Below, piece after piece: positions 976 to 58,269 of a stretch of DNA of 64,000 bases. Positions within the stretch are counted from its first letter, which is position 1. Each line of letters begins with the position of its first letter. The DNA comes from an uncultured Bdellovibrionales bacterium. GTDB lineage: Bacteria; Patescibacteriota; Minisyncoccia; Moranbacterales; UBA1568. The stretch covers positions 3,627 to 67,626 of the forward strand of contig CAYTED010000004.1 of the NCBI GenBank assembly GCA_964436855.1, written 5' to 3'. A program made the position numbers and the translations under genes. Under the pieces are notes generated by a model. That model saw only the letters and a list, made by a program, of their open reading frames with translations, had not been told where the DNA came from and did no database searches.

Positions 976-3093
976 ATGATCGAAAATACTTCACTCAACA
1001 CTCGCTCCGGCATCTCGCAATACTATCTCACCCGCCTCAAACGACTCGGGATCACGACCCTGCGCGACCTCCTCTTTCATTTTCCCTCGCGCTATGAAGA
1101 TTATTCCGTCACAAAAAAAATCGCCGAACTCCTCCCGGATGAAAAAGCGACCATCGAAGGTATCGTCAAAACGTTCAAATCAGGCCGCACCTTTCACAAA
1201 AAAATGTTTCTCGCCGAAGCGACGCTCGCTGATGAGTCCGGATCTATCCGCATCATTTGGTTCAATCAAAAATTTGTCGCACAGATGATACGGCCCGGGA
1301 TGCACCTTCGCGTATCCGGCAAAGTAAGCAATGACAAACACGGTCTCCATTTTTCCAACCCCGCCTTCGAACGCGCCGAACGAGACGAAACACATACCGG
1401 CCGCCTCGTCCCCATATACCCCGAAACCTCCGGCCTCACCTCGAAATTCTTCCGCTGGCAAATCGGCGAAATACTCAAAAAACATCTCAAAGGCATTCCC
1501 GACTTTGTCCCCGAAGAAATCCTCACTCGTCTTCACCTCCCCTCGCTCGCCCGCGCACTCGCCTACATTCACTTCCCCAACAAACTCGACGAAGCCCTCC
1601 TCGCCGAAAAACGATTTGCTTTCGACGAAATGCTCCTCGTCCAACTCAAATCACTTCTCACCAAATCTTCCTGGGATGCCGCTCGTGCGATTTCTTTTCC
1701 TCGCGCCGAAAAAGACGCCGAAGCACTGCTCACATCACTCCCCTTCACACTCACTGCCGCGCAGACCCGAGCGACCCAAGAAATTCTCGCCGATCTCACC
1801 CAAGGAAAACCGATGAACCGACTCTTGAATGGCGATGTCGGATCGGGAAAAACGATAGTCGCCGCCATTGCCTGTCACGCGATCGCGAATGCCGATTTTC
1901 AATCCGCGCTCCTCGCGCCGACCGAAGTTTTGGCCCGACAACACTACGAAACATTCGCAAAACTTTTTGCAAAAACAGATACAAAAATTGCCCTCCTCAC
2001 CCAAGCCTATCAAATCCTCGACGGACAAATCGTCTCCCGAGCGACGCTTCTTGCTGCGCTCAAGTCCGGCATGATCCATATCTTGATCGGCACGCATGCC
2101 ATCATCCAGAAAGACATTCGTTTCAAAAATCTCGCTCTCGTCATCATCGACGAACAACACCGATTTGGCGTGGCACAGCGCGCCTATCTTCAAGAAGAAG
2201 CCAAAAATATCAACGATGGACTCGCAGAGACCACACCACACTTCCTCACTATGACCGCCACCCCGATTCCGCGGACACTCACGCTCGCCTATTTCGGCAA
2301 TCTCGAACTCTCCCTCCTCGACGAAATGCCAAAATCGCGAAAACCCATTATCACCAAAATTGCAAAAAACAACGCTGACCGAAACAAAATCTATGATTTT
2401 ATCCGAAAGCACATTCGCGAGGGACGACAAGCATTTGTCATCCTCCCGCTCGTCGAGGAAAGCGAAGCGCTTGCCGATGTAAAGGCGGCAACTGTCGAGC
2501 GCGATCGTCTCGGAAAAGAAATTTTTTCCGATCTTTCAATCGGCCTCTTGCATGGCCGGCTCAAATCAAAAGAAAAAGAAGAAGTGATGCGCGATTTTAA
2601 AGAAAAAAAATATCAGATTCTTGTCGCAACCGCCGTCGTCGAAGTCGGTATCGATGTTCCCAATGCTACAATCATGGTGATCGAAGATGCCGAACGATTC
2701 GGACTCTCGCAACTCCACCAATTCCGCGGACGCGTTGGTCGCGGTGAGCATCAGTCATATTGCTTTCTCTTTCCCCACCAACATCCCGCCGAATCGGGAA
2801 GTTCCGGCGGACAGGCCGGCTCCATAAATGAACGTCTGAAAATATTGGAGAAAACCAACAATGGTTTCGAGATCGCCGAAGAAGATCTCAAAATCCGAGG
2901 ACCCGGATCATTTTTCGGCATTCGCCAGTCAGGACTTCCCGATGTCGCAATGGAAAATCTCGCCAATGTAAAACTCGTCAAAATCTCCCGCACCGAAGCG
3001 GAAACACTTCTCAAAAAAGACCCCTCCCTCGCATCGTTTCCCCTCCTCCAAAAAGAACTCGCTCGCTTTGACCAACGCATTCACTTGGAGTAA
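976..3093 (+). CDS. recG: ATP-dependent DNA helicase RecG
   Basis: 705 aa. N-terminal wedge/OB region. Walker A GDVGSGKT. DEQHRFG motif. Helicase C domain with QLHQFRGRVGRG. C-terminal RecG-type tail. Confidence 0.9.
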   Translation: MIENTSLNTRSGISQYYLTRLKRLGITTLRDLLFHFPSRYEDYSVTKKIAELLPDEKATIEGIVKTFKSGRTFHKKMFLAEATLADESGSIRIIWFNQKFVAQMIRPGMHLRVSGKVSNDKHGLHFSNPAFERAERDETHTGRLVPIYPETSGLTSKFFRWQIGEILKKHLKGIPDFVPEEILTRLHLPSLARALAYIHFPNKLDEALLAEKRFAFDEMLLVQLKSLLTKSSWDAARAISFPRAEKDAEALLTSLPFTLTAAQTRATQEILADLTQGKPMNRLLNGDVGSGKTIVAAIACHAIANADFQSALLAPTEVLARQHYETFAKLFAKTDTKIALLTQAYQILDGQIVSRATLLAALKSGMIHILIGTHAIIQKDIRFKNLALVIIDEQHRFGVAQRAYLQEEAKNINDGLAETTPHFLTMTATPIPRTLTLAYFGNLELSLLDEMPKSRKPIITKIAKNNADRNKIYDFIRKHIREGRQAFVILPLVEESEALADVKAATVERDRLGKEIFSDLSIGLLHGRLKSKEKEEVMRDFKEKKYQILVATAVVEVGIDVPNATIMVIEDAERFGLSQLHQFRGRVGRGEHQSYCFLFPHQHPAESGSSGGQAGSINERLKILEKTNNGFEIAEEDLKIRGPGSFFGIRQSGLPDVAMENLANVKLVKISRTEAETLLKKDPSLASFPLLQKELARFDQRIHLE

Positions 3094-7536: not shown

Positions 7537-7599
7537 GGGGAGTCGAACCCCTCTTACCAGGATGAAAACCTGATGTCCTAGCCGATAGACGATGGGGCC
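7528..7599 (-). tRNA. tRNA-Glu (anticodon TTC)
   Basis: 72-nt cloverleaf by hand. Acceptor GGCCCCA/TGGGGCT. T-loop GGGGTTCGACTCCCC. Anticodon loop TTTTCAT. Confidence 0.85.
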
Positions 7600-7752
7600 A
7601 AATTTGGAAACACAACAAAAAAACAGCGAAACACTGCAAGCACATCATAGCATAAAATCACCTTTACGCAAGGCGGCTCGTCTCTTTTTCTTAAGCACCC
7701 TTTTAATACCCTGCTTTATGCTCTATACTCCATACCTTATACTTCCATATAT

Positions 7753-8991
7753 ATGAAAATTCTCTCTATCGAAACTTCTTGCGACGAAACCGCCGCCGCC
7801 ATTGTCGAAAAGCAAGGCGAGAATGTTTCCATACACGCAAGCGTCGTCTCTTCGCAGATCGACCTCCATGCCAAATATGGCGGTGTCGTCCCCAATCTCG
7901 CCGCGCGAGAACATACAAAAAATATCGTCCCGGTCATCGAAGAAACTCTCGCGGAAGCGAAATGTACCCCAAGCGATATTGATCTCATCGCGGTTACCCA
8001 GGGGCCCGGCCTTATCCCCGCCCTCCTCGTCGGCACAACCGCCGCGAAAACACTCTCGTGCGTTTGGAAAAAACCATTAATTGGAATACACCACATCGAG
8101 GGACATATCTACGCCAATTTCATTGGCAATAACCAATTACCAATCCGCCAGCTGACGGACAAGATACAAACAAATCCCAATAATCAAATTTTAAATTCGA
8201 AAATTCATTCATTAGAGATTGATTCAAAATTCGAAAATCAAAATTCGAAATTCCCCCTAGTAGCTCTCGTCGTCTCCGGCGGACACACAGAACTCATATT
8301 GATGCGCGATCACTTCGACTACGAAATTCTCGGCGAAACGGAAGACGATGCTGTCGGTGAATGTTTTGACAAGGTCGCGCGTATGCTCGGCCTCCCCTAT
8401 CCCGGAGGCCCGGCCGTCGCCAAACGTGCCGATACATTTCACTCTTCCTCCTCCTCTGCCCGAGGGGAGGTGTCGAGTCTTCGAGACGGAGGGGTGGGAG
8501 ATTCCAAATTCCAAATTCCAGATTCTCACTTTCAATTTCCTCGTCCCATGATCAATTCCGGCGATTACCGATTTTCTTTCTCCGGCCTCAAAACATCCGT
8601 TCTCTATTTTCTCAAGAAAAATGAAGAAAAAATGAAAGATGATGCTTTCATTGACGAAGTCTGCTCTGAATTTCAAGAAGCGGTCGTGGATGTATTGGTA
8701 ATAAAATCGAAACGGGCAATCGAAGAATTCCGACCGAAAACCTTCGTCATCGCCGGCGGTGTCTCGGCCAATGTTCGATTACGTAACCGATTACGTAATA
8801 TGATCGAGACCGAATTTCCCGACACCACATTTACCATGCCGGAATTTGAGTACTCACTCGACAACGCCGTCATGATCGGCGCCGCCGCCGCCTTCCGCTA
8901 CGATCGCATGAGCGACAAGCAAAAATCCGAACTCAAAAACAACTGGCAAACCCTCGAAGCAAGCGCCAGCCTCACGCTTTCCAATCTATGA
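7753..8991 (+). CDS. tsaD: tRNA N6-adenosine threonylcarbamoyltransferase TsaD (Kae1/Gcp), carrying two in-frame repeat-derived insertions
   Basis: N-terminus MKILSIETSCDETAAAIV. HHIEGH metal motif. VSGGHTEL, FSFSGLKT and AGGVSAN motifs. 412 aa versus about 340 typical. Extra segments map to 8136-8252 and 8437-8530. Confidence 0.9.
   Translation: MKILSIETSCDETAAAIVEKQGENVSIHASVVSSQIDLHAKYGGVVPNLAAREHTKNIVPVIEETLAEAKCTPSDIDLIAVTQGPGLIPALLVGTTAAKTLSCVWKKPLIGIHHIEGHIYANFIGNNQLPIRQLTDKIQTNPNNQILNSKIHSLEIDSKFENQNSKFPLVALVVSGGHTELILMRDHFDYEILGETEDDAVGECFDKVARMLGLPYPGGPAVAKRADTFHSSSSSARGEVSSLRDGGVGDSKFQIPDSHFQFPRPMINSGDYRFSFSGLKTSVLYFLKKNEEKMKDDAFIDEVCSEFQEAVVDVLVIKSKRAIEEFRPKTFVIAGGVSANVRLRNRLRNMIETEFPDTTFTMPEFEYSLDNAVMIGAAAAFRYDRMSDKQKSELKNNWQTLEASASLTLSNL
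8185..8252. repeat. AT-rich AAAATTCGAAAAT-type repeat block, inside the tsaD coding sequence (insertion 1)
   Basis: aaattcgaaaattcattcatt...gattcaaaattcgaaaatcaaaattcgaaattc. Translates as NSKIHSLEIDSKFENQNSKF in frame. Confidence 0.6.
8444..8500. repeat. Copy of the two-hairpin palindromic repeat family, in-frame inside tsaD (insertion 2)
   Basis: tcctcctcctctgcccgaggggagg tgtcgagtcttcgagac ggaggggtggg. Aligns with copies at 9761, 10174, 44598 and 45131. It is followed by attccaaattccaaattcca. Confidence 0.6.
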
Positions 8992-9728
8992 ATGTCACAC
9001 CGATAAAAACCGAAAAGGTATCTCCAAACGAGCAGACACTCATTTCTGTTCTCGACCGAAATCTCGAGCATTTTCCAGATCACTCTATCCTCGCTATCAG
9101 TGCAAAAATCATTTCCCTTTGTGAAGGTCGCATTGCCGATCTTTCCAAAGACAAAGAAGCTCTCATAAAGCAAGAGGCCGATTATTTCCTCCCAAAAAAA
9201 TTCCGCAAACACAAAGCCTCCGGAACTATCATTCATCACGCTTTCATTGGCGCGGCCGGCATCGATGAAAGCAATGCTGCCGGACACTATGTTCTTCTTC
9301 CAAAGGATCCACAACAAGCTGCCAATACCATTTATCAATACTTAAAAAAACGTTTCAATGTGAAACGCGCTGGCGTACTGATTACCGATAGTCATTCCAC
9401 TCCGATGCGACGTGGGGCTTCCGGTATAGCTCTTGCTTATCGCGGCTTCATAGGGCTCAAAGACTACCGAGGCAAACCAGACGTCTTCGGTCGAAAACTC
9501 ATTATGGAGCAAGCCAACATCGCCGATGCACTTGCAGCAACCGCTGTCCTTATGATGGGCGAAGGTGACGAGCAAACACCCCTCGCGCTCTTTGAAAACA
9601 TTCCAAATATCACTTTTAGCAATACCGCTCCGACCAAAAAAGAACTGGGTCAATTCTTCGTCGACCTCGAAGACGATATTTTTTTCCCGATCATCAACTT
9701 CAAACACCTCAAGAAAACAAAATTCTAG
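8988..9728 (+). CDS. CofE-family protein (F420-0:gamma-glutamyl ligase-like fold, PF01996-like)
   Basis: Shared blocks AISAKIISLCEGR, GAAGIDESNAAG..VLLPKDP, ITDSHSTPMRRGASGIALAYRG..LKDYRG and ADALAATAVLMMGE. Start overlaps the tsaD stop (ATGA). Confidence 0.7.
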   Translation: MNVTPIKTEKVSPNEQTLISVLDRNLEHFPDHSILAISAKIISLCEGRIADLSKDKEALIKQEADYFLPKKFRKHKASGTIIHHAFIGAAGIDESNAAGHYVLLPKDPQQAANTIYQYLKKRFNVKRAGVLITDSHSTPMRRGASGIALAYRGFIGLKDYRGKPDVFGRKLIMEQANIADALAATAVLMMGEGDEQTPLALFENIPNITFSNTAPTKKELGQFFVDLEDDIFFPIINFKHLKKTKF

Positions 9729-9760
9729 ACAAGTAAAAATCCCCCATATCATCAAGCCTT

Positions 9761-9818
9761 CCCGCTCCTCTTTTTTAAAAGGGGAGCTGTCACGTACTCG
9801 TGACTGAGGGGTTATACA
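9761..9818. repeat. Palindromic two-hairpin repeat, upstream copy flanking the DUF559 gene
   Basis: gctcctctttttt-aaaaggggagc hairpin plus gtcacgtactcgtgac hairpin plus tgaggggtta. Ends 7 nt before the DUF559 ATG. Confidence 0.6.
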
Positions 9819-9825
9819 GAAAACC

Positions 9826-10176
9826 ATGACACAGATAAGCACCCTCGAGCTGCTCAAGACCAAGCGAAAAACTTTAAGAAAATCTGCAACGCCACAGAAA
9901 ATTATTCTCTGGTCGAGACTTCGTCGAAATCAGCTTGGCATCAAGTTCCGAAGACAACATTCCATCGGAAACTACATTCTTGATTTTTACTGCTCAGAGA
10001 AAAAACTTGCTATCGAACTCGATGGTTGGCAACACAAGGAAAATAAACTATACGATAACGAAAGGACGGCTTTCTTACATGATTTGAACATTCGAGTACT
10101 TCGGTTTTGGAATAATGAAATCAATGATAATCTCGAAGGAGTCATATCAAAAATAATCGAGGCACTCAAACCCTAA
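9826..10176 (+). CDS. DUF559 endonuclease-domain protein (Vsr/restriction-endonuclease-like fold)
   Basis: 116 aa with the canonical DUF559 pattern LRKSATPQKIILWSRLRRNQLGIKFRRQHSIGNYILDFYC..KLAIELDGWQH...RTAFLHDLNIRVLRFWNNEI. Confidence 0.85.
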   Translation: MTQISTLELLKTKRKTLRKSATPQKIILWSRLRRNQLGIKFRRQHSIGNYILDFYCSEKKLAIELDGWQHKENKLYDNERTAFLHDLNIRVLRFWNNEINDNLEGVISKIIEALKP

Positions 10177-10232
10177 CCCCTCCGTCCCGCAGACGGGCCC
10201 CCTCCCCTTTCAGAAAAGGTGAGGGGGAAATA
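10174..10232. repeat. Palindromic two-hairpin repeat, downstream copy in inverted orientation relative to 9761-9818
   Basis: taacccctc ccgtcccgcagacggg ccccctcccctttcagaaaaggtgaggggg. Its reverse complement aligns with the upstream copy at about 75% identity. It begins at the DUF559 stop codon. Confidence 0.6.
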
Positions 10233-10382
10233 CACACAATTCCATCCCGAACACCTCACCGATCGTACCTTAGGCAACGAAGTCTTTCTCACAATTCTCA
10301 AAAAGTGTCTCGCAAGATAACATCGTATTATCTCTCTTTTCCCTTGAAAAAAAGGGCTTGTTCATGGTATTCTCAAAGACAT

Positions 10383-12959
10383 ATGGATCCACAAGAAATC
10401 CCGAAAACCTATACCCCGAAAGACTGGGAATCCAAGCTCTACGCAAAGTGGGAAGAGAGCGGTTTTTTCAATCCTGACAACCTTCCAGGAGATCGAACGG
10501 AGGCTTTTTCCATTATCATGCCGCCACCAAATGCCAATGGACGACTCCATGCAGGACATGCGCTCTTCGTAACTGTCGAAGATATTTTCACCCGTTTTCA
10601 TCGCATGAATGGGAAAAAAGCACTCTGGGTTCCCGGGGCCGATCACGCCGGATTCGAGACGCAAGTCGTATATGAAAGGAAACTTGAGAAAGAAGGTCGC
10701 TCACGATTCGATCTCTCACGCGAAGCACTCTATGACGAAATCTACAATTTCACCATGGAGAACAAAGGGCACATGGAAAGCGATCTCCGTAAGCTTGGCG
10801 CAAGTTGCGACTGGAGCCGCAATGCCTTTACACTCGATCCGAAAATTGTTTCCATCGTTCAGGATACCTTTCGCAAGATGTTCACAGATGGACTCGTGTA
10901 CCGCGGCAAGCGCATCGTAAACTGGTGCTCCAAACACCAGACCGGTCTCTCCGATGTGGAAACCGAAAATCAAGAATCCATTTCCCCACTCTACTATTTT
11001 CAGTATGGACCATTTGAAATTGCAACCGTACGGCCGGAAACCAAGTTCGGCGACAAATATGTCGTCATGCACCCGAATGATGAACGCTACAAAGAGTTCA
11101 CCCATGGACAAAAAATAGAAGTCGAATGGATCAATGGCCCTATCACCGCAACTATCCTCAAGGACGAAGCTATCGACCCAGCCTTCGGAAGTGGCGTCAT
11201 GACCATCACCCCTTGGCATTCCCAGGTGGACTACGATCTCGCACTCAAATACGATCTCGACTTCGAGCAGATCATCGATGAGAAAGGTTGTCTGCTTCCA
11301 ATCGCCCAGGAATTCGCCGGAATGAATATCGATGAAGCGCGCGAAAAAATCGTCGAGAAGCTACAAAGCAAAGGCCTCTTAGTAAAAATCGAGGAGGGTT
11401 ATCATAATGTAAAAAAAGTTTGCTACAAATGTGAGACTGTTATCGAGCCGCAAGCGCGTGAGCAGTGGTTTGTAAAAATGAAACCACTCGCGGAGCTCGC
11501 ACTGAAAGCTGTCCGCGATAATAAAGAAATCGAATTCCATCCGAAGAATTATGAGAAGATTTTCACCTACTGGATGGAGAACACCATCGATTGGAATATC
11601 TCCCGACAGATCGTCTGGGGCATTCCTATTCCTGCGCAGTACTGTGCTGTTTGTAACAAAGGCTACATCGACAGGAAAGCCGGCGACACCTGCAAATGCA
11701 GTGGCACTCTCGTCGCCGAAACCGACACTTTCGATACCTGGTTCTCATCCGGACAGTGGCCACTCCTATCGCTCGGCTATCCAGATTCACCGGATGTAGC
11801 TACCTATCACCCAACCACTGTCATGGAAACCGGCCATGACCTCATATTCAAGTGGATTCCTCGCATGGTTATCTTCAGCCTGTATCTCAAGAATGAAATC
11901 CCCTTTCAGCATGTCTATCTACATGGCCTCGTCAATGATGAGCATGGACAAAAGATGAGTAAGAGCAAGGGAAATGTCATCAGCCCGATCGACCTCCTCA
12001 ACGAATACGGCACTGACGCACTTAGACTCGCGCTCGTCATCGGCAATGCCCCAGGGAATAATATCCCACTCTCGTTCAAGAAAGTCGAATCCTATCGCAA
12101 CTTCGCGAACAAGCTCTGGAATATCGGGCGATACATAAACAGCCAACAGTCAGCAAACAACAATCAACAAAAGAGCGCTGCAGATTATTGGATCCTGTCA
12201 CGTCTCAACGAAACCATCGAAGAAATTACTCGACTTCTTGAAAATTACCAACCATCTCTCGCCGGAGAAAAGCTTCGCGACTTCACGTGGACCGAATTTG
12301 CTGACTGGTATGTCGAGATCCACAAAGTCGAAAAAAATGATGCGGTGCTTCGACATGTTTTTGAAACTCTCCTCAAACTCTGGCATCCATTCATTCCCTT
12401 CGTCACCGAAGCTCTCTGGGAAACATTTGGCAACTCGGAAAAAAGCTTGCTTATTACTGAAAAATGGCCGACGAACAATACTTCCGAGGAGAATTCCGAA
12501 GCCGAGGCCTTCAAAAAAATCATCACACTCATTCAAGAGGTCCGCGCCATTCGCTCTCTCTACCGTATCGACCCGGCGACGAAATTCAATATTACCGTTC
12601 AAGAAAATTCTGAAGCATTCATCCGAAACAATGAAGCAATTTTCAAACGCCTCGCGCGCATCGAAGAAATTCGTCTTTCAGAGACCATCCCAACACACTC
12701 TGCTCTCGCACAAGCAGGATCACTCCGTGTCTACATCGAACTCGAAGGCGTAATTGACTTTGACGCGGAGAAAAAGCGTCTCGAAAAAGAAATATCCGAA
12801 AAAGAAAAATATATCGTTTCGCTTGAATCAAAACTCGGAAACAAGAACTTCATCGAACGCGCAAAACCGGATATCGTCGAAAAAGAACAATCGAAATTAC
12901 AAGAAGCAAAAAACCAGATGAGTGATCTTACCGAACATCTGAATTCTCTCCCTCATTGA
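10383..12959 (+). CDS. valS: Valine--tRNA ligase
   Basis: Class I aaRS. HIGH-type motif PPPNANGRLHAGHA. KMSKSKGN motif. C-terminal coiled-coil typical of ValRS. Start placed at MDPQEIPKTY. Confidence 0.9.
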   Translation: MDPQEIPKTYTPKDWESKLYAKWEESGFFNPDNLPGDRTEAFSIIMPPPNANGRLHAGHALFVTVEDIFTRFHRMNGKKALWVPGADHAGFETQVVYERKLEKEGRSRFDLSREALYDEIYNFTMENKGHMESDLRKLGASCDWSRNAFTLDPKIVSIVQDTFRKMFTDGLVYRGKRIVNWCSKHQTGLSDVETENQESISPLYYFQYGPFEIATVRPETKFGDKYVVMHPNDERYKEFTHGQKIEVEWINGPITATILKDEAIDPAFGSGVMTITPWHSQVDYDLALKYDLDFEQIIDEKGCLLPIAQEFAGMNIDEAREKIVEKLQSKGLLVKIEEGYHNVKKVCYKCETVIEPQAREQWFVKMKPLAELALKAVRDNKEIEFHPKNYEKIFTYWMENTIDWNISRQIVWGIPIPAQYCAVCNKGYIDRKAGDTCKCSGTLVAETDTFDTWFSSGQWPLLSLGYPDSPDVATYHPTTVMETGHDLIFKWIPRMVIFSLYLKNEIPFQHVYLHGLVNDEHGQKMSKSKGNVISPIDLLNEYGTDALRLALVIGNAPGNNIPLSFKKVESYRNFANKLWNIGRYINSQQSANNNQQKSAADYWILSRLNETIEEITRLLENYQPSLAGEKLRDFTWTEFADWYVEIHKVEKNDAVLRHVFETLLKLWHPFIPFVTEALWETFGNSEKSLLITEKWPTNNTSEENSEAEAFKKIITLIQEVRAIRSLYRIDPATKFNITVQENSEAFIRNNEAIFKRLARIEEIRLSETIPTHSALAQAGSLRVYIELEGVIDFDAEKKRLEKEISEKEKYIVSLESKLGNKNFIERAKPDIVEKEQSKLQEAKNQMSDLTEHLNSLPH

Positions 12960-17583: not shown

Positions 17584-19025
17584 ACCCCCTTTCCTTGACC
17601 AAAAAATCCGAATCGCTCAAAATGCCGCTCGGTTATTCGTCGTACCGAGTGCACAAAGTACCAGTACTCACGCGCAAAAAGAAGTATCCACAAGAAAAAG
17701 AGGGTCAATAACACAAGGAAAAACCATCCGATCCTTTGTGCGACTTGCGCATACGTGATTGTCTCGCTATTCCCAAGCCTCGCGACCGGATACGGCTGCA
17801 CAGAAAATGAAAGCTCTCGACTCACCGTATACTTGCCCCGCTCCGCATATACCAAAACCCGATACCCCGAAACCGCGTCAACCCAGAGTGGTATTTTTAT
17901 ATCCCGGGAAAAAGATTGGTCGGAAAAATCTCGAATTTCAGGAATAAGCCGCGACACTTCTCTCCCGGAAGGATCGAGTACAACGTACGAAAAAGCGATC
18001 GGATCCGTATTCTCATCGGAAAACGCCGCATTCGTATCGACAGTTACCACGATCGGAAGAGAGTCTCCCTGCATCACCTCGTGCATCCCTCCGCGAATCG
18101 CAATGTTAAAATCAAAAGGAAGTGACGATTTTCCCGAAGAAATTTGTTCGAAAGATCCGGTGAAAAAATCTTCCTCTCCCTTCTGATTCGATTTTCCGCG
18201 CCGATGAGAATCATCCGTATTATCGGTTACTTCGAAAGAAATCGAGTCCTCCGATGTTCTTGTTGAATCATCAGGATCGGTAACCGTAACCGTAAAAAGA
18301 TGCTCTCCTTCGGAAAGGCGTACCGGCGACGTCCACTCCCAATATCCGGCGGCATTGGCCGTCAATTGAGCAGCGACGGTATTCGAACTATTCAGAAGAA
18401 TATCAATAATACCGTTCGCGATATTGGTCACTCCGGAAAACCTCGGGGTCCTGTCGGATATGGAAAGATTCGTTCGGAAATTCGTCACATCTTTTCGAAC
18501 AAAGCGCGTTGTTGTAATGGTCGCCGGAGATGCGGACGGACAATCAAGCGTCGTCGCCGAAACCGAATCCGAGACTTCCGTCCCCGGAAACATCGGCCCA
18601 TTCGCCGTCACAACATACGAATAGGTCGTTGATTCGGAAACGGAGATGTCGGAATACTGCGATGTCGCGACCCCGGTAACAAGCGTCACGCTGTCTCGAT
18701 CGATATCCCACGACGATGTCCCGATATCATCCGCCCAGTCAAGTTGCACGCGCGGCGCTCCGGAAACGCACACCGGCGTTGCGGTAACAATGGGTTTTTG
18801 CGGCGGCCCAACCACGGTCGCAAGCACGGTAATATCGGCTCCGATTGCGCGAAGTTTTTCTTGTATATCCTTGACAAAAAATTCCGGACCAAGGAAAAAT
18901 CCCAAAGCAAGGTACGAAACAAAAGCGATACCGACAACAAAAAGATGGAGTCGGATACACCACTGAATAGCCCGATTTGGTTGATGCATAATTTTTTGAG
19001 AGCCTCCCTCAAAATATCGAAACAA
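17574..19025 (-). CDS. Hypothetical exported protein with N- and C-terminal TM anchors and a Ser/Thr/Asp-rich extracytoplasmic region
   Basis: N-terminal TM (FVVGIAFVSYLALGFFLG), about 400-aa hydrophilic region, C-terminal TM (WFFLVLLTLFFLWILLF). Probable start at MHQPNR (18989). Confidence 0.45.
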   Translation of the reverse strand: MFRYFEGGSQKIMHQPNRAIQWCIRLHLFVVGIAFVSYLALGFFLGPEFFVKDIQEKLRAIGADITVLATVVGPPQKPIVTATPVCVSGAPRVQLDWADDIGTSSWDIDRDSVTLVTGVATSQYSDISVSESTTYSYVVTANGPMFPGTEVSDSVSATTLDCPSASPATITTTRFVRKDVTNFRTNLSISDRTPRFSGVTNIANGIIDILLNSSNTVAAQLTANAAGYWEWTSPVRLSEGEHLFTVTVTDPDDSTRTSEDSISFEVTDNTDDSHRRGKSNQKGEEDFFTGSFEQISSGKSSLPFDFNIAIRGGMHEVMQGDSLPIVVTVDTNAAFSDENTDPIAFSYVVLDPSGREVSRLIPEIRDFSDQSFSRDIKIPLWVDAVSGYRVLVYAERGKYTVSRELSFSVQPYPVARLGNSETITYAQVAQRIGWFFLVLLTLFFLWILLFAREYWYFVHSVRRITERHFERFGFFGQGKGVWG

Positions 19026-19281: not shown

Positions 19282-20880
<1,599 letters not shown>

Positions 20881-21171
20881 TAAAGGTGATTGGAATGGAA
20901 AATCATTATGCACCTCCATAATGATTCTTTCCGATCGAAATCGAAAAGTTCCGAAAGAAGATTCTTAGCAAACCACCCGTCTTTTCTCTCCGGTAAACCG
21001 GAAACAAGAGAACGTTTTTCGTTTGCCAAGCATCTTCAAAGAATAAACGAAGATTCACTTTTTCTCCCGAAGGAGAAAATGAAGACTGACCGCAAAAAAT
21101 TGCGATCGTACTGACTTCTTTTTTTAAGAAAACAAAGCAATTGAGAAAATGAATTCCTCTATCGCCAAGCC

Positions 21172-42029: not shown

Positions 42030-42185
42030 TTTGGATTTTTTCAATAAAAAAAATTTTCAATTATCAATTCTCAATTTCCATTGAATTTTCAATGCCACAA
42101 TCCTCAATGATCTGAATGGATAAACATTGAGACATTGAATATCGATCAGATTGAAAATTGAAAAATGTAAATTGAAAATTGCTGT
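42030..42185. repeat. AT-rich AATTGAAAATTG / CAATTTTCAATT repeat block in the fusA-rpsG spacer
   Basis: ttcaattatcaattctcaatttccattgaattttcaat ... gattgaaaattgaaaaatgtaaattgaaaattg. Confidence 0.55.
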
Positions 42186-42189
42186 CGCT

Positions 42190-42659: not shown

Positions 42660-42720
42660 TTTCTTAAAATTTCCAATTATCAATTTCCGATTTCCAAACA
42701 ATTTTCAATATTTCAAAAAA
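42660..42720. repeat. AT-rich CAATTTCC/AATTTTCAAT repeat block in the rpsG-rpsL spacer
   Basis: aaaatttccaattatcaatttccgatttccaaacaattttcaatatttc. Confidence 0.5.
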
Positions 42721-42773
42721 TCTTTTCTTCTTTCACTCTTCATTCCCGATTCACCATTCTTGATTCTGCCTTG

Positions 42774-43193: not shown

Positions 43194-43241
43194 AGTATTT
43201 TTTGGATTACACCTTTAGTACAAACAAAAAAAGAGTGCTTA

Positions 43242-43400
43242 GAACCTGTTCGAAACCTCTCTTTCGTTACGAAAATTTTCATTTTCGAGCGAAAAATTTG
43301 GAGAACGAGGAAGGCTATAAGGAATATAACCTGACGAGTTATCCGAATTTTACAGCCGAAAATGAAATTTTGCAGTAAAAAACGGGTTTTGAACAGGTTC
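43242..43400. repeat. Upstream-of-rpsL structured spacer: a 16-bp long-range inverted repeat (43242-43257 and 43385-43400) enclosing CGAAAATTTTCATTTTCG-type AT repeats
   Basis: gaacctgttcgaaacc vs ggttttgaacaggttc (15/16 complementary). Confidence 0.45.
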
Positions 43401-44590: not shown

Positions 44591-44597
44591 AAACACA

Positions 44598-44650
44598 GCT
44601 CCCTTTCTTCCTCCTCCCCTTTCCGAGGGGAGGATATGAGGAGGGGTTCG
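44598..44650. repeat. Copy of the two-hairpin palindromic repeat family (short variant)
   Basis: cctcctcccctttccgaggggagga ... gaggaggggttcg. Confidence 0.5.
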
Positions 44651-44678
44651 ATTCGTAACTTCACGATACCTAATATCT

Positions 44679-45097: not shown

Positions 45098-45121
45098 CCG
45101 GCGATAAAGCCGGTTTTTTTA
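45098..45121 (+). terminator. Rho-independent terminator after mscL
   Basis: ccggcgataaagccgg followed by TTTTTTT. Confidence 0.55.
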
Positions 45122-45130
45122 TTACACCAT

Positions 45131-45186
45131 CCCTCCTGCTCCCCTTTCTAAGGGGAGCTGCCGAGTCTTCAGGGTTGAGGGGTGTG
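45131..45186. repeat. Copy of the two-hairpin palindromic repeat family
   Basis: ccctcctgctcccctttctaaggggagctgccgagtcttcagggttgaggggtgtg. Confidence 0.55.
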
Positions 45187-45214
45187 TTGAATTGGTGAAT
45201 GAGATTTGATATTA

Positions 45215-45757: not shown

Positions 45758-45836
45758 CTGTCATCCCGGGCTTGATACGGGATCCAGAAAAAATCAGTTT
45801 GTGGAGCCTGGATCCCCGCCTTCGCGGGGATGACAG
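45758..45836. repeat. Hairpin-pair palindromic element (family TGTCAYCCCCGC..GCGGGGATCCAG), locus 1
   Basis: ctgtcatcccgggcttgatacgggatccag + 20 nt + ctggatccccgccttcgcggggatgacag. The two units are in inverted orientation. Confidence 0.55.
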
Positions 45837-46081
45837 AGGACTAACCCAATACCAGTTCAAAACGATTTTTACTCTATCATTCTTTCTAAAAAAAGTGCAA
45901 GGGAGGTCTTATTCAAGACGCTCCCTTCTTCGGACGGCGCGTTGCGCCGCCGGATGTGTCACAAAGGACGCATGGCCAGACAATGCCGATATGTGAACAT
46001 TATCCGCCGCGCCCACTGGTGCAACGCGATATCGGCACGCAGCTTGCGCACGCATCGTGCGAGTTGCCGACGTAAGAATCG

Positions 46082-49784: not shown

Positions 49785-49822
49785 GCGAGCTTAAAACAAG
49801 CAATAAGAAAATTATTTCCTCT

Positions 49823-49923
49823 TTGTCACCCCCGCGAAGGCGGGGGTCCAGATTCCACGATCGTTGATTTTTCTTTGAACAAGGAAAGTGATTTCTGGGT
49901 TCCCGCTTTCGCGGGAATGACAG
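49823..49923. repeat. Hairpin-pair palindromic element, locus 2
   Basis: ttgtcacccccgcgaaggcgggggtccag + 42 nt + tctgggttcccgctttcgcgggaatgacag. Confidence 0.55.
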
Positions 49924-55721: not shown

Positions 55722-55770
55722 TCAAAAAAACCGATGTCAAGCGGCCACTTCGGTTGTGTTTTTTGTTTTA
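55722..55770 (-). terminator. Hairpin terminator between ftsA and ftsZ
   Basis: aaccgatgtcaagcggccacttcggtt flanked by an A-run and a T-run. Confidence 0.45.
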
Positions 55771-55932
55771 GAGCCTGTCCAAGAAATCCGTATTCTGCTG
55801 CAATTCCATTTTTTTGGCTGCAAAAAGTTCAGATCTCGTCAGGTTATATCTTCATATAGCCCTCCTCCATCTTCACTTTTTTCGCTCAACAACATGGAAT
55901 TTCGCGACGAAAGAGATTTCTTGGACAGGCTC
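55771..55932. repeat. Perfect 18-bp long-range inverted repeat (55771-55788 and 55915-55932) in the ftsA 3' region
   Basis: gagcctgtccaagaaatc and gatttcttggacaggctc. Confidence 0.5.
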
Positions 55933-55949
55933 TTACCGGATTCAGTATA

Positions 55950-58166: not shown

Positions 58167-58269
58167 AATAATGAATTTTGAATACGAAATTTTAAATCAA
58201 TTTTTAATTTTAAAAATTCGAAATTCAATCAAAATTCAAAATTAAGAAATTGAAAATTTTCTCTCTTTC
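58167..58269. repeat. AT-rich AAATTCGAAATTC/AATTGAAAATT repeat block in the ybeY-yqeY spacer
   Basis: gaattttgaatacgaaattttaaatcaatttttaattttaaaaattcgaaattcaatcaaaattcaaaattaagaaattgaaaatttt. Confidence 0.55.

Follow-up and report, generated by a model that had tools for sequence, protein, structure and literature searches.

What has been added to tsaD in this small Moranbacteria (CPR) genome, and where could the additions have come from? The tsaD ORF at positions 7753-8991 (+) of the window, by which we mean the whole 64-kb stretch of DNA analysed here, encodes 412 aa, compared with 327-343 aa in solved bacterial TsaDs. The product matches the Pfam TsaD family (PF00814, E 9.5e-87) in two stretches and the NCBIfam equivalog TIGR03723 in three (382 bits against a cut-off of 296). 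Its AF2 model has the ASKHA fold, with a target-length-normalised Foldseek TM score of 0.86 to E. coli TsaD (6z81/4ydu). By profile, fold and motifs we assign the product to TsaD / Kae1 / Qri7, the t6A transferase subunit. Searching PDB chains with phmmer aligned the protein to E. coli/Salmonella TsaD in three blocks, residues 1-127 corresponding to 1-124, 161-227 to 122-188, and 258-384 to 193-314. The gaps between the blocks mark two points of surplus, of ~35 and ~28 residues, confirming the two in-frame extra segments that the initial annotation had reported in this essential gene, at coordinates that proved correct to within 1-3 nt. The annotation had also stated that the frame is preserved and the flanking motifs intact, and all four were indeed located: HHIEGH (residues 113-118), VSGGHTEL (174-181), FPRPM (262-266) and SFSGLKT (275-281). 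The metal-binding HxxxH, GGH, FPRP and SFSGLKT motifs are invariant columns among 91 orthologues.

Insertion 1 lies at 8128-8250 (+; ~aa 126-166), as delimited by the gap in the PDB alignment, low pLDDT and DNA matches, and contains the peptide LPIRQ...NQNSK (aa 129-166, nt 8137-8250). It is composite, made of a mini-palindrome, a spacer and then AT-rich repeats with a 7-nt period. The mini-palindrome is the near-palindromic ATCCGCCAGCTGACGGAC at 8143-8160 (+). Its module, ATCCGCCRGCTGRCGGAC, occurs 14 times across 6 Moranbacteria loci, with locations that include a RecG insert (L058), a tsaD site-2 insert (L072) and tRNA-like pseudo-copies. The AT-rich repeats, which a period-7 scan placed at 8186-8253 (+), are built of AAATTCG / AAAATCA units and translate as ...DSKFENQNSKF; their period-7 autocorrelation is in the top 0.1% of the 64-kb window. 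The segment had been described as a hairpin plus repeats, and the palindrome and the 7-nt repeats stood, whereas the 12-mer AAATTCGAAAAT on its own is at chance level, with 6 matches in the window against 3.9 expected. A blast search aligned the repeat segment of insertion 1 with window positions 19714-19764 (82.7% over 52 nt, E 1.5e-6), and DNA of the insertion also matches site-2 inserts of other genomes, RecG inserts and intergenic palindromes.

The core of insertion 2 (peptide HSSSS...IPDSH, aa 230-259, nt 8440-8529) is a GC-rich two-hairpin element at 8431-8515 (+), recovered by alignment A1 and a covariance model. It runs into a heptad tail at 8501-8535 (+; ATTCCAA, ATTCCAA, ATTCCAG, ATTCTCA...), which was detected in the period-7 scan and translates as DSKFQIPDSHFQ; heptad runs like it also occur at site 1 of L002 and L027 and at site 2 of L025. 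Exact and near-exact searches of the window with the 41-mer insertion-2 core and a heptad 21-mer returned the tsaD copy alone. The repeat copies are too diverged for exact search, so that alignment and covariance models were required. Covariance model R2 was trained on four intergenic two-hairpin copies only, with the tsaD copy excluded. These are a copy directly upstream of a DUF559 gene (9746-9831, +), an inverted copy overlapping the DUF559 stop codon (10158-10242, -), a solo copy without hairpin 2 (44592-44665, +) and a further solo copy (45117-45198, +), the solo copies being supported by both alignment A1 and the covariance models. R2 found the tsaD copy at 49.6 bits (E about 4.5e-14) as its sole further full-length match in the 64 kb, which bears out the proposal that insertion 2 is a copy of an intergenic two-hairpin repeat. 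Likewise, the copy at 9746-9831 scored 32.7 bits (E 3e-9) with R1, a model trained without it. Overall, the family comprises five copies of 70-85 nt in the window, one of them within tsaD. Its alignment has 23 invariant columns, and the element is predicted to fold into an outer stem around two hairpins. Two further tsaD genes contain related copies at site 1, that of L038 (E 1e-9) and that of L046 (E 1e-3).

The other repeat family consists of AT-rich heptad arrays (7-nt period, units of the AATTTCC / AAATTCG type) with embedded GC mini-palindromes. In intergenic DNA, these arrays fold into long hairpins of about 120 nt. They are extended, imperfect palindromes there, and the element at 13965-14081 of L065, for instance, has arms of 58 nt; within tsaD, most copies amount to one arm or a fragment. 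The window holds an inverted pair in the rpsG-fusA spacer (42042-42186) and another intergenic element at 58174-58261, both from the repeat listing, the period-7 scan and blast, as well as the element AAATTTCCAATTATCAATTTCCGATTTCCAAACAATTTTCAA... in the rpsL-rpsG spacer (42663-42769), which is matched by 9 different tsaD inserts. The family also reaches the 16S rRNA gene at 19284-20884 (-; Rfam RF00177, 1403 bits). There, the helix-40 loop measures 142 nt, compared with 5 in the RF00177 consensus, and alignment to RF00177 together with blast delimits the insertion at 19650-19791 (-). Its core, 19672-19771, belongs to the heptad family of insertion 1, and blast matched the 16S insertion to the window's own insert and to 5 other tsaD inserts. 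Covariance model and blast thus agree with the initial view that the material of both tsaD segments comes from repeat families of this same genome. We found no partner mobilising enzyme for the heptad family.

To place these segments in a wider context, we compared them with 80 Moranbacteria loci, taken from MAGs or SAGs of numerous studies, and with 120 orthologues from databases, setting the insert boundaries by alignment anchors. All 81 tsaD genes were intact, with a variable stretch of 4-97 aa at site 1 (median 21) and 6-58 aa at site 2 (median 20), and the inserts in the MAGs, SAGs and database proteins fall at exactly the same two sites. Three orthologues (L080, L026 and L044) are almost insert-free. 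Judged from these sequences, the inserts are not two private events of the window's genome, and the same sites are filled across the Moranbacteria examined. The initial expectation that the extra segments would be lineage-specific held for the GC two-hairpin part of insertion 2; the closest relative, P0002, carries a different GC repeat there. It failed for insertion 1, which shows clear homology to site-1 inserts in the sister lineages P0002, P0003, P0049 and P0050. The inserts have a GC content of 0.36, compared with 0.47 in the remainder of tsaD. Their residues are enriched 1.8-2.4-fold in Q, S, N and K and depleted in A, V, L, M and W. The tsaD frame is open in every one of the 88 inserts with 20 aa or more, and the other five frames are open in only 12-27 of them. 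We detected no conserved residue within the inserts, the invariant columns being confined to the TsaD core. A heptad-like [AT]TT[TC]CC motif marks the 3' junction in 59 of 81 genes at site 1 and 33 of 81 at site 2. As a cause of the hot spots, however, microhomology through this TTYCC motif at the native Phe-Pro codons is insufficient, given that the motif also occurs 1.84 times per gene elsewhere, insert-free.

A pooled cross-genome blast comparison over 1.3 Mb revealed how widely the insert DNA is shared. Site-1 and site-2 inserts of different genomes gave 370 matches, one pair reaching 88.5% over 61 nt (E 1e-18), and matches also occurred in reverse orientation, 100% identical over 32 nt (NFQFPISNF versus IGNWKLEIGN). 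With tsaD masked, the inserts matched 53 other regions. Forty of these lie outside long ORFs, including the 16S core at 19672-19771, and the remaining 13 lie inside other long ORFs, nine of them in RecG and ValS (identified by Pfam or motifs) and one in a U32 peptidase. The last aligned with a tsaD insert at 88% over 43 nt that include non-tandem sequence, and the non-tandem segment AAATCCYAATGACTCAATTTC is common to inserts in tsaD, the U32 peptidase and RecG. A further match, in LeuS of L067, is less secure, since its position is N-terminal in the ORF, ahead of any Pfam match and adjoining masked bases. On the strength of these matches, repeat insertion appears as a phenomenon wider than tsaD, extending to RecG, ValS, LeuS, the U32 peptidase and the 16S rRNA gene. 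Within single loci, inserts matched their own flanks (up to 21 kb) no better than core controls did (mean 24.8 versus 25.0 bits); the support for kinship between inserts and repeats comes from the pooled, cross-genome comparison.

Turnover at the two sites is recent. Pairs of genes encoding 98-100% identical TsaD cores differ by 39-nt or 87-nt indels or by wholly different cassettes. For example, L081 and L082 share 99.2% DNA identity and are distinguished by one in-frame 39-nt indel between TAATGAC repeats. This 7-nt repeat resembles a target-site duplication, but TAATG(A/C)C also opens the RecG copy at its 5' end, so that it is more probably the element's own sequence.

In the AF2 model, both inserts are predicted to lie between secondary-structure elements, with none inside the inserts, in agreement with the suggestion that they form loops on the TsaD structure. 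One loop follows the metal-binding HxxxH helix and the other precedes the FPRPM segment; the loop of insertion 1 is flanked by helix 114-123 and strand 169-174. Most of the core has a pLDDT above 90, and values below 50 are limited to residues 128-163, 238-251 and the C-terminal 409-412. The pN/pS ratio is 0.57 in the inserts and 0.12 in the TsaD core, making the inserts ~5 times less constrained. A value below 1 could reflect some constraint on the loops (polarity, avoidance of stops) or a weak function. From the conservation of the frame we infer translation of the inserts into polar, disordered loops on the protein surface, which would leave the enzyme working. The initial annotation had called the repeats domesticated, a term that finds no support in their predicted disorder, relaxed pN/pS and strain-level gain, loss and replacement among genes whose cores are 98-100% identical.

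We consider it probable that the inserts are selfish or neutral repeats resembling Rickettsia palindromic elements (RPEs), tolerated in permissive TsaD loops and contributing no new functional domain. The two loops would act as permissive hot spots, which repeat copies may enter by transposition, or by recombination or template switching with the many other copies. Inserted copies would then be remodelled through nested hairpin insertions, slippage and deletion between short direct repeats. Selection would serve as a filter alone, keeping variants that are in frame, stop-free and in tolerant loops. Several heptad units pass such a filter easily, because (AATTTCC)n, (AAATTCG)n and (ATTCCAA)n contain zero stop codons across all six frames.

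A different origin would be expansion in situ, in which slippage of native A/T-rich codons near Phe-Pro generated low-complexity sequence, the likeness to the repeats is convergent and nothing moved. The 7-nt period of the inserts, with its 21-nt (7-aa) super-period, fits this account, as do the frequent heptad-like junction motifs, the within-locus similarity equal to controls and the indels between short direct repeats. The heptad arrays are of low complexity, and part of the similarity could indeed stem from independent slippage. However, slippage cannot yield the GC two-hairpin element of insertion 2, which a model built from intergenic copies alone finds. Also against it are the non-tandem segment common to the tsaD, U32 peptidase and RecG inserts, the use of one cassette at site 1 here and site 2 there, even in reverse orientation, the unrelated cassettes at one site between strains with about 99% identical cores, and the insert-free junction motifs elsewhere in the core. 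We thus regard in-situ expansion as unlikely. Domesticated, functional loops seem improbable to us as well, whether they were to contact a partner or tRNA, to serve regulation, or to encode an mRNA hairpin controlling translation or decay. In most Moranbacteria examined, both variable stretches exceed those of the shortest orthologues (medians of 21 and 20 compared with minima of 4 and 6), pN/pS is below 1 and a hairpin of about -34 kcal/mol is embedded in insertion 2, all of which a function could explain. Yet the fold energy of the insertion-2 RNA is ordinary given its composition (z = -0.84), the stretches vary between 4 and 97 aa and are almost missing from the three orthologues named above, and near-identical strains swap or lose cassettes. 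The lack of any conserved residue inside the inserts, their pLDDT below 50 with no predicted secondary structure, and the presence of the same sequences in unrelated proteins and intergenic DNA likewise argue against this explanation.

The segments might also never reach the protein, either through excision from the mRNA or through ribosomal bypassing of the kind seen with T4 gene 60 and mitochondrial byp elements. CPR rRNA and tRNA genes are rich in intervening sequences (PMC11270868, PMC13011429), the heptad family also sits within the 16S gene, and insertion 2 contains stable hairpins. Nevertheless, in each of the 81 genes both inserts preserve the frame and lack stop codons, although the other five frames of the inserts are open only ~23% of the time. 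Combined with the one-in-three chance of a compatible length, ~8% of inserts would be expected to be ORF-compatible if frame were irrelevant. Moreover, we saw no intron, intein or bypass motifs, and no Rfam family at the insert positions; we consider such processing very unlikely. Finally, the window belongs to a metagenome-assembled genome, and mis-assembly typically happens at repeats, such that repeat DNA could have been misjoined into tsaD during assembly or binning. Reassuringly, a contig from an independent assembly (Logan, SRR12229868) is identical to window positions 7571-9991 over 2421 nt with 0 mismatches, the 80 MAGs/SAGs and 120 database proteins carry inserts at the same two sites, and the inserts are in frame, leaving hardly any room for an artefact.

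If the inserts are RPE-like repeats, what could move them? The DUF559 gene at 9826-10176 (+), which has inverted copies of the two-hairpin element on both sides, offers a candidate for that element. It matches PF04480 with an E-value of 2e-34 over profile positions 4-108 of 109, and NCBIfam names it "DUF559 domain protein"; its NF007294 score of 91 bits is under the equivalog cut-off of 218, making it a member of the DUF559 family and not the E. coli YcjD equivalog. DUF559 / MTES_1575 proteins (PF04480) have a Vsr-like PD-(D/E)XK fold (PMC3424549), and the gene is accordingly annotated as an endonuclease. The order element (+), DUF559, element (-) of the window recurs in 34 of 80 homologous metagenome loci. 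Across these 80 loci, 42 of 55 two-hairpin model matches lie within 130 nt of the DUF559 gene ends, zones that make up 9.6% of the sequence (enrichment p about 8e-32), with upstream matches mostly on the + strand and downstream matches mostly on the - strand. None of the 83 tsaD loci from other genomes carries the gene, and its only other match is L085, the Logan copy of the window. The spacer between the cofE-like gene and valS varies in length (-43 to 600 nt) and is occupied in other lineages by small, unrelated genes; we could identify no clean empty site for the cassette. DUF559 is not known to have transposition activity. We tentatively suggest, as a possibility we would not yet favor, that the two-hairpin element is the terminal inverted repeat of an unrecognised, small DUF559-only mobile unit, whose solo ends, along with heptads, actively invade tolerant positions in essential genes; such a unit would work analogously to the REP/RAYT pair.

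The analogy with RPEs, proposed in the initial annotation, is supported by comparison. In the description by Ogata et al. (2000), as reviewed in PMC10969869, RPEs are units of about 100-150 bp with one conserved reading frame. Both systems involve short, multi-copy repeats found in intergenic DNA and inside unrelated housekeeping ORFs, where they are in frame and translated (for our inserts, by inference) as an extra peptide at fold-compatible positions, and both occur in a reduced-genome, host-dependent bacterium. The hosts belong to different phyla, and the likeness we claim concerns the mode of working; sequence homology is not expected. The elements described here differ in joining two unlike modules, AT-rich arrays with a 7-nt period and GC hairpins, and in occupying hot-spot loops with strain-level gain, loss and replacement. 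The two-hairpin family further resembles REP/REPIN-RAYT systems in its hairpin-forming palindromes scattered as solo copies and in the nuclease gene set between inverted copies of a dispersed hairpin repeat. However, that gene encodes a Vsr-like PD-(D/E)XK DUF559 protein instead of an IS200/IS605-like HUH/Y1 transposase. REPs are extragenic by definition, whereas the two-hairpin element also lies inside ORFs (tsaD of the window, L038 and L046). Length-variable, polar and disordered surface loops that interrupt conserved enzymes, with a contribution from slippage, also recall Plasmodium and other AT-rich genomes, whose housekeeping proteins carry Asn/Lys-rich low-complexity insertions. Here, in contrast, the sequence is shared with dispersed repeats, in both orientations, and includes GC-rich palindromes. 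Like the ERIC, BOX, Correia and cyanobacterial MITEs, the repeats are small, non-autonomous, hairpin-forming, multi-copy and occasionally translated (PMC10969869). Unlike them, the tsaD copies have no demonstrated signature of terminal inverted repeats with target duplication, and in-frame occupancy at the two sites is the rule class-wide. In the full-text literature outside subscription journals, we found no earlier CPR report of palindromic, MITE or in-frame repeats, in keeping with the initial statement that such insertions had not been described for CPR, and no prior description of DUF559 paired with inverted hairpins.

The insertion in the 16S rRNA gene connects these repeats to an older observation. 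Short uncharacterised insertions are known from CPR rRNA genes (Brown et al. 2015; Tsurumaki et al. 2024, PMC11270868). Many are <200 bp and have no ORF or intron features, a description that the 142-nt helix-40 insertion fits. Those papers leave the short insertions unlinked to intergenic repeats or protein genes, whereas here one family occurs in all three. Some of the unexplained short rRNA insertions of CPR bacteria may thus have a concrete source in the heptad family seen in the 16S helix. If the DUF559 mobile-unit reading were true, the sites it colonises would comprise protein loops of TsaD, RecG, ValS, LeuS and the U32 peptidase, together with 16S rRNA helix 40 and tRNA-like genes, in Patescibacteria, and some of the uncharacterised short insertions known from CPR rRNA would be accounted for as well. 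The association of DUF559 with inverted hairpins also gives this very common domain a testable functional hypothesis and may point to a new mechanism of mobilisation.

For the proteins themselves, the inserts form a natural data set on which loops can accommodate random polar additions. Annotation, alignment, phylogeny and structure modelling of CPR proteins are all affected by non-homologous blocks of variable length at fixed sites, and two loops of the essential TsaD seem to be hypervariable at the strain level. The genomes of CPR/Patescibacteria are small and commonly called streamlined; yet, on the reading we prefer, selfish repeats would be continually remodelled inside some of their most conserved genes.

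The tsaD gene (positions 7753..8991, + strand) is an ORF of 412 aa whose product matched the Pfam TsaD family PF00814 (E 9.5e-87, in two stretches) and scored above the cut-off of the NCBIfam equivalog TIGR03723 (382 versus 296 bits, in three stretches). Aligned to PDB sequences, its residues 1-127, 161-227 and 258-384 correspond to residues 1-124, 122-188 and 193-314 of E. coli and Salmonella TsaD; these three blocks therefore leave ~35 and ~28 residues without a counterpart in the PDB TsaDs. Solved bacterial TsaDs measure 327-343 aa. The two gaps confirm the extra segments, insertion 1 (aa 129-166; nt 8137-8250, + strand) and insertion 2 (aa 230-259; nt 8440-8529, + strand), and the motifs HHIEGH, VSGGHTEL, FPRPM and SFSGLKT are unbroken, as the initial annotation had stated. 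The insertion of repeat DNA into tsaD, its main reading, is real. An assembly artefact was excluded by an independent Logan assembly of SRR12229868, one contig of which is identical to positions 7571-9991, and by the recurrence of the same insert pattern across the MAGs and SAGs of many studies.

We compared the 120 closest database TsaD proteins (P numbers below), and the 80 best tsaD loci of other Moranbacteria genomes (L numbers) together with the window. The database proteins range from 353 to 477 aa, and this variation is confined entirely to the same two sites. Across the 80 loci and the window, tsaD is always a single intact ORF; its variable stretch spans 4-97 aa at the first site and 6-58 aa at the second. 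GC content is 0.36 in the inserts versus 0.47 in the remainder of the gene. Of the 88 inserts that reach 20 aa or more, every one is open in the tsaD frame, against just 12-27 for the remaining five frames. From these counts we infer that only ~8% would be ORF-compatible if frame were irrelevant, which speaks for read-through of the inserts. The segments had been expected to be lineage-specific; instead, the length of both sites changes across all orthologues examined, and even between strains, which makes them class-wide hot spots.

An AF2 model of the window TsaD, built with 91 orthologues, reached a mean pLDDT of 83.4 (at least 90 in 253 of 412 residues) and a TM score of 0.86, normalised by target length, against E. 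coli TsaD (6z81, 4ydu). Values below 50 were limited to residues 128-163, 238-251 and the C-terminal tail 409-412, and the first two stretches lack predicted secondary structure. In the five genomes with alignable inserts, pN/pS was 0.57 for the inserts versus 0.12 for the core. In composition, the inserts favour Q, S, N and K, with A, V, L, M and W under-represented.

A repeat search of the window paired positions 8439-8469, inside tsaD, with 44602-44632 and 45127-45157, and positions 8463-8495 with 10176-10208 in inverted orientation. Four aligned copies of this GC-rich two-hairpin element, the tsaD copy included, share 23 invariant columns and consist of a left arm rich in pyrimidines, hairpin 1 (CCTCCCC-loop-GGGGAGG), a hairpin 2 that is variable and may be absent, and the right arm GAGGGGT; a covariance model of the four picked up another at 9747-9822 (E 3e-9), bringing the count to five. 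The claim that insertion 2 copies an intergenic repeat was borne out by a model rebuilt from the four intergenic copies, with the tsaD copy left out, which recovered 8431-8515 at 49.6 bits (E ~4.5e-14, rough calibration) and gave no further full-length match in the window. On the 3' side of the element, insertion 2 continues with ATTCCAA-type heptads that reach the native FPRPM codons.

Insertion 1 is composite, combining the near-palindrome ATCCGCCAGCTGACGGAC (8143-8160) with AT-rich, 7-nt-period repeats. The 12-mer singled out in the initial annotation was not, on its own, above chance. Thirteen regions make up the top 0.1% of the window's period-7 signal, including both tsaD inserts, the rpsL-rpsG and rpsG-fusA spacers, 58214-58248 and 19669-19776. 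Insertion 1 resembles 19714-19764 (82.7% over 52 nt; E 1.5e-6 when searching 1.3 Mb), the site-2 tsaD insert of L072 (80.7% over 57 nt, palindrome included) and intergenic sequence of L019 (83% over 42 nt), as well as an insert in RecG of L058. Direct reading showed (AATTTCC)n, (AAATTCG)n and (ATTCCAA)n to be stop-free in all six frames, so that such arrays easily pass an ORF filter; (AAAATTC)n reversed yields TGA. A Gln/Asn-rich stretch of valS with 7-nt periodicity (12135-12174, SQQSANNNQQKS) lies at the ValS position of heptad-derived inserts in L004, L005 and L007.

Sequence comparison shows that in-situ divergence of loops does not account for the inserts. A blastn of all inserts against each other placed 69 of 105 in a single cluster and gave 370 matches between a site-1 insert of one genome and a site-2 insert of another (for example, L004 site 2 versus L032 site 1, 88.5% over 61 nt, E 1e-18). 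In opposite orientation, matches reached 100% over 32 nt, one pairing NFQFPISNF in one genome with IGNWKLEIGN in another. With tsaD masked, the inserts matched 53 other regions of the pooled loci. Forty lie outside long ORFs, many being ~120-nt AT-rich heptad palindromes or GC palindromes and one an insertion in a 16S rRNA gene; 13 lie inside other long ORFs, mostly RecG (five loci, one position) and ValS (two positions), with one U32 peptidase and one LeuS, the latter N-terminal in the reading frame, before any Pfam match. Heptads are low-complexity sequence, a caveat on their similarity; the U32 peptidase match (88% over 43 nt) includes the non-tandem AAATCCYAATGACTCAATTTC. Within single loci (flanks of up to 21 kb), inserts resembled their own surroundings no more than tsaD core controls did. 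The in-frame RecG inserts (L058 1801-1903, L065 4932-4998, L076 5409-5471, L072 2137-2204, L027 2344-2367) fall within the DEAD helicase domain, flanked by ...LLTxS and GTHALIQ, a position without an insert in the window's RecG (976-3093).

The window's 16S rRNA gene (19284-20884, - strand) carries 142 nt in the helix-40 loop (19650-19791, - strand), versus 5 in the consensus. The insertion is closed by a GC stem (CCCAGCCCTTT...AAAGGGCTGGG), and its core is a heptad repeat matching insertion 1 and five other tsaD inserts. Many CPR rRNA insertions below 200 bp, lacking intron or ORF features and of no assigned origin, were reported by Tsurumaki et al. 2024 (PMC11270868).

Further repeats were seen in these genomes. 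Two near-identical 118-nt AT-rich heptad palindromes of L065 (13964-14081 and 14471-14588), 507 nt apart with sub-repeats reported as 95-100% identical, each lie directly 3' of a tRNA-Arg gene, and a third, diverged copy occupies 17751-17869; the pair points to a recent event in which the element's intergenic form was duplicated or moved. Degenerate tRNA-Arg(TCT)-like copies (L065 14301-14345; L027 14528-15020), partly tandem and adjoining an intact tRNA-Arg gene, the only one called by ARAGORN, carry the mini-palindrome ATCCGCCAGCTGGCGGAC in place of the anticodon-stem 5' strand. A third, intergenic GC-palindrome family of the GGATCCCCGCCTTCGCGGGGATGACA type forms an 87% complementary pair in the window (45801-45838 and 49821-49858), and, as read from the peptides, a seemingly related translated repeat (...LDPRVKPEDD...) sits at tsaD site 2 of P0002 (the closest relative) and P0052/L019. 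Two related imperfect palindromes of ~160 nt, MITE-like in appearance, are intergenic (43241-43400, 55770-55933; upstream of rpsL and near 55.8 kb), with inverted termini GAACCTGTTC...GAACAGGTTC and AGAGCCTGTCCAAGAAATC...GATTTCTTGGACAGGCTCT.

Judged from close sequence pairs, insert turnover is recent. Database TsaDs with 98-100% identical cores differ sharply at both sites, by indels of 13 aa (P0043/P0065) and 29 aa (P0019/P0061) or by wholly different cassettes at one site (P0019/P0024/P0051); inserts of P0006 and P0072 contain nested 7-aa GC-hairpin peptides. L081 and L082, 99.2% identical in DNA, differ by a 39-nt in-frame indel flanked by two TAATGAC repeats. Because the same heptamer begins the RecG copy, the indel is probably a deletion or duplication between element-internal repeats rather than a target duplication.

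Two mutually inverted two-hairpin copies abut the start and stop codons of a 116-aa gene for a DUF559, Vsr-like PD-(D/E)XK endonuclease (9826-10176, Pfam E 2e-34; bracketed unit 9746-10242), which was not found in 83 tsaD loci of other genomes. We surveyed 80 metagenomic loci with homologues at 47-68% identity, taking covariance-model matches at E <0.1. Of 55 matches, 42 lay within 130 nt of the gene ends, windows comprising 9.6% of the searched sequence (binomial p ~8e-32); upstream matches were mostly on the + strand and downstream ones mostly on the - strand, an arrangement present in 34 of the 80 loci. Direct alignment of upstream with reverse-complemented downstream flanks gave pairs resembling terminal inverted repeats. 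The Vsr/DUF559 clade contains a homing endonuclease (PMC3424549), and among the DUF559 papers listed, titles and abstracts yielded nothing on such repeats. The gene and its inverted copies may form a mobile unit whose arrangement mirrors REP/RAYT, but which is not a member, since the enzyme class differs. This lead could exceed the tsaD finding in novelty. The spacer between the cofE-like (F420-ligase-like) gene and valS ranges from an overlap to ~600 nt (window 9729-10304, L011 10048-10632, L082 2801-3427), and its contents differ by lineage, with DUF559 in the window and unrelated reverse-strand ORFs of ~143 and 205 aa elsewhere.

Two tsaD loops contain in-frame DNA derived from two repeat families, and the same families also occur in intergenic DNA, other ORFs and the 16S gene. 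This supports the proposed likeness to Rickettsia palindromic elements (PMC10969869), which the tsaD inserts resemble in how they work; membership of that family is not claimed. Copies would enter by transposition or through recombination with further copies, be reshaped by slippage, by nested insertions and by deletions between short repeats, and, given their frame and predicted structure, be translated as disordered loops. Selection would act only as a filter for an open frame and a tolerant position. Such inserts in tsaD appear to be undescribed for CPR and, rather than domesticated as initially proposed, are better termed tolerated selfish repeats at class-wide hot spots.
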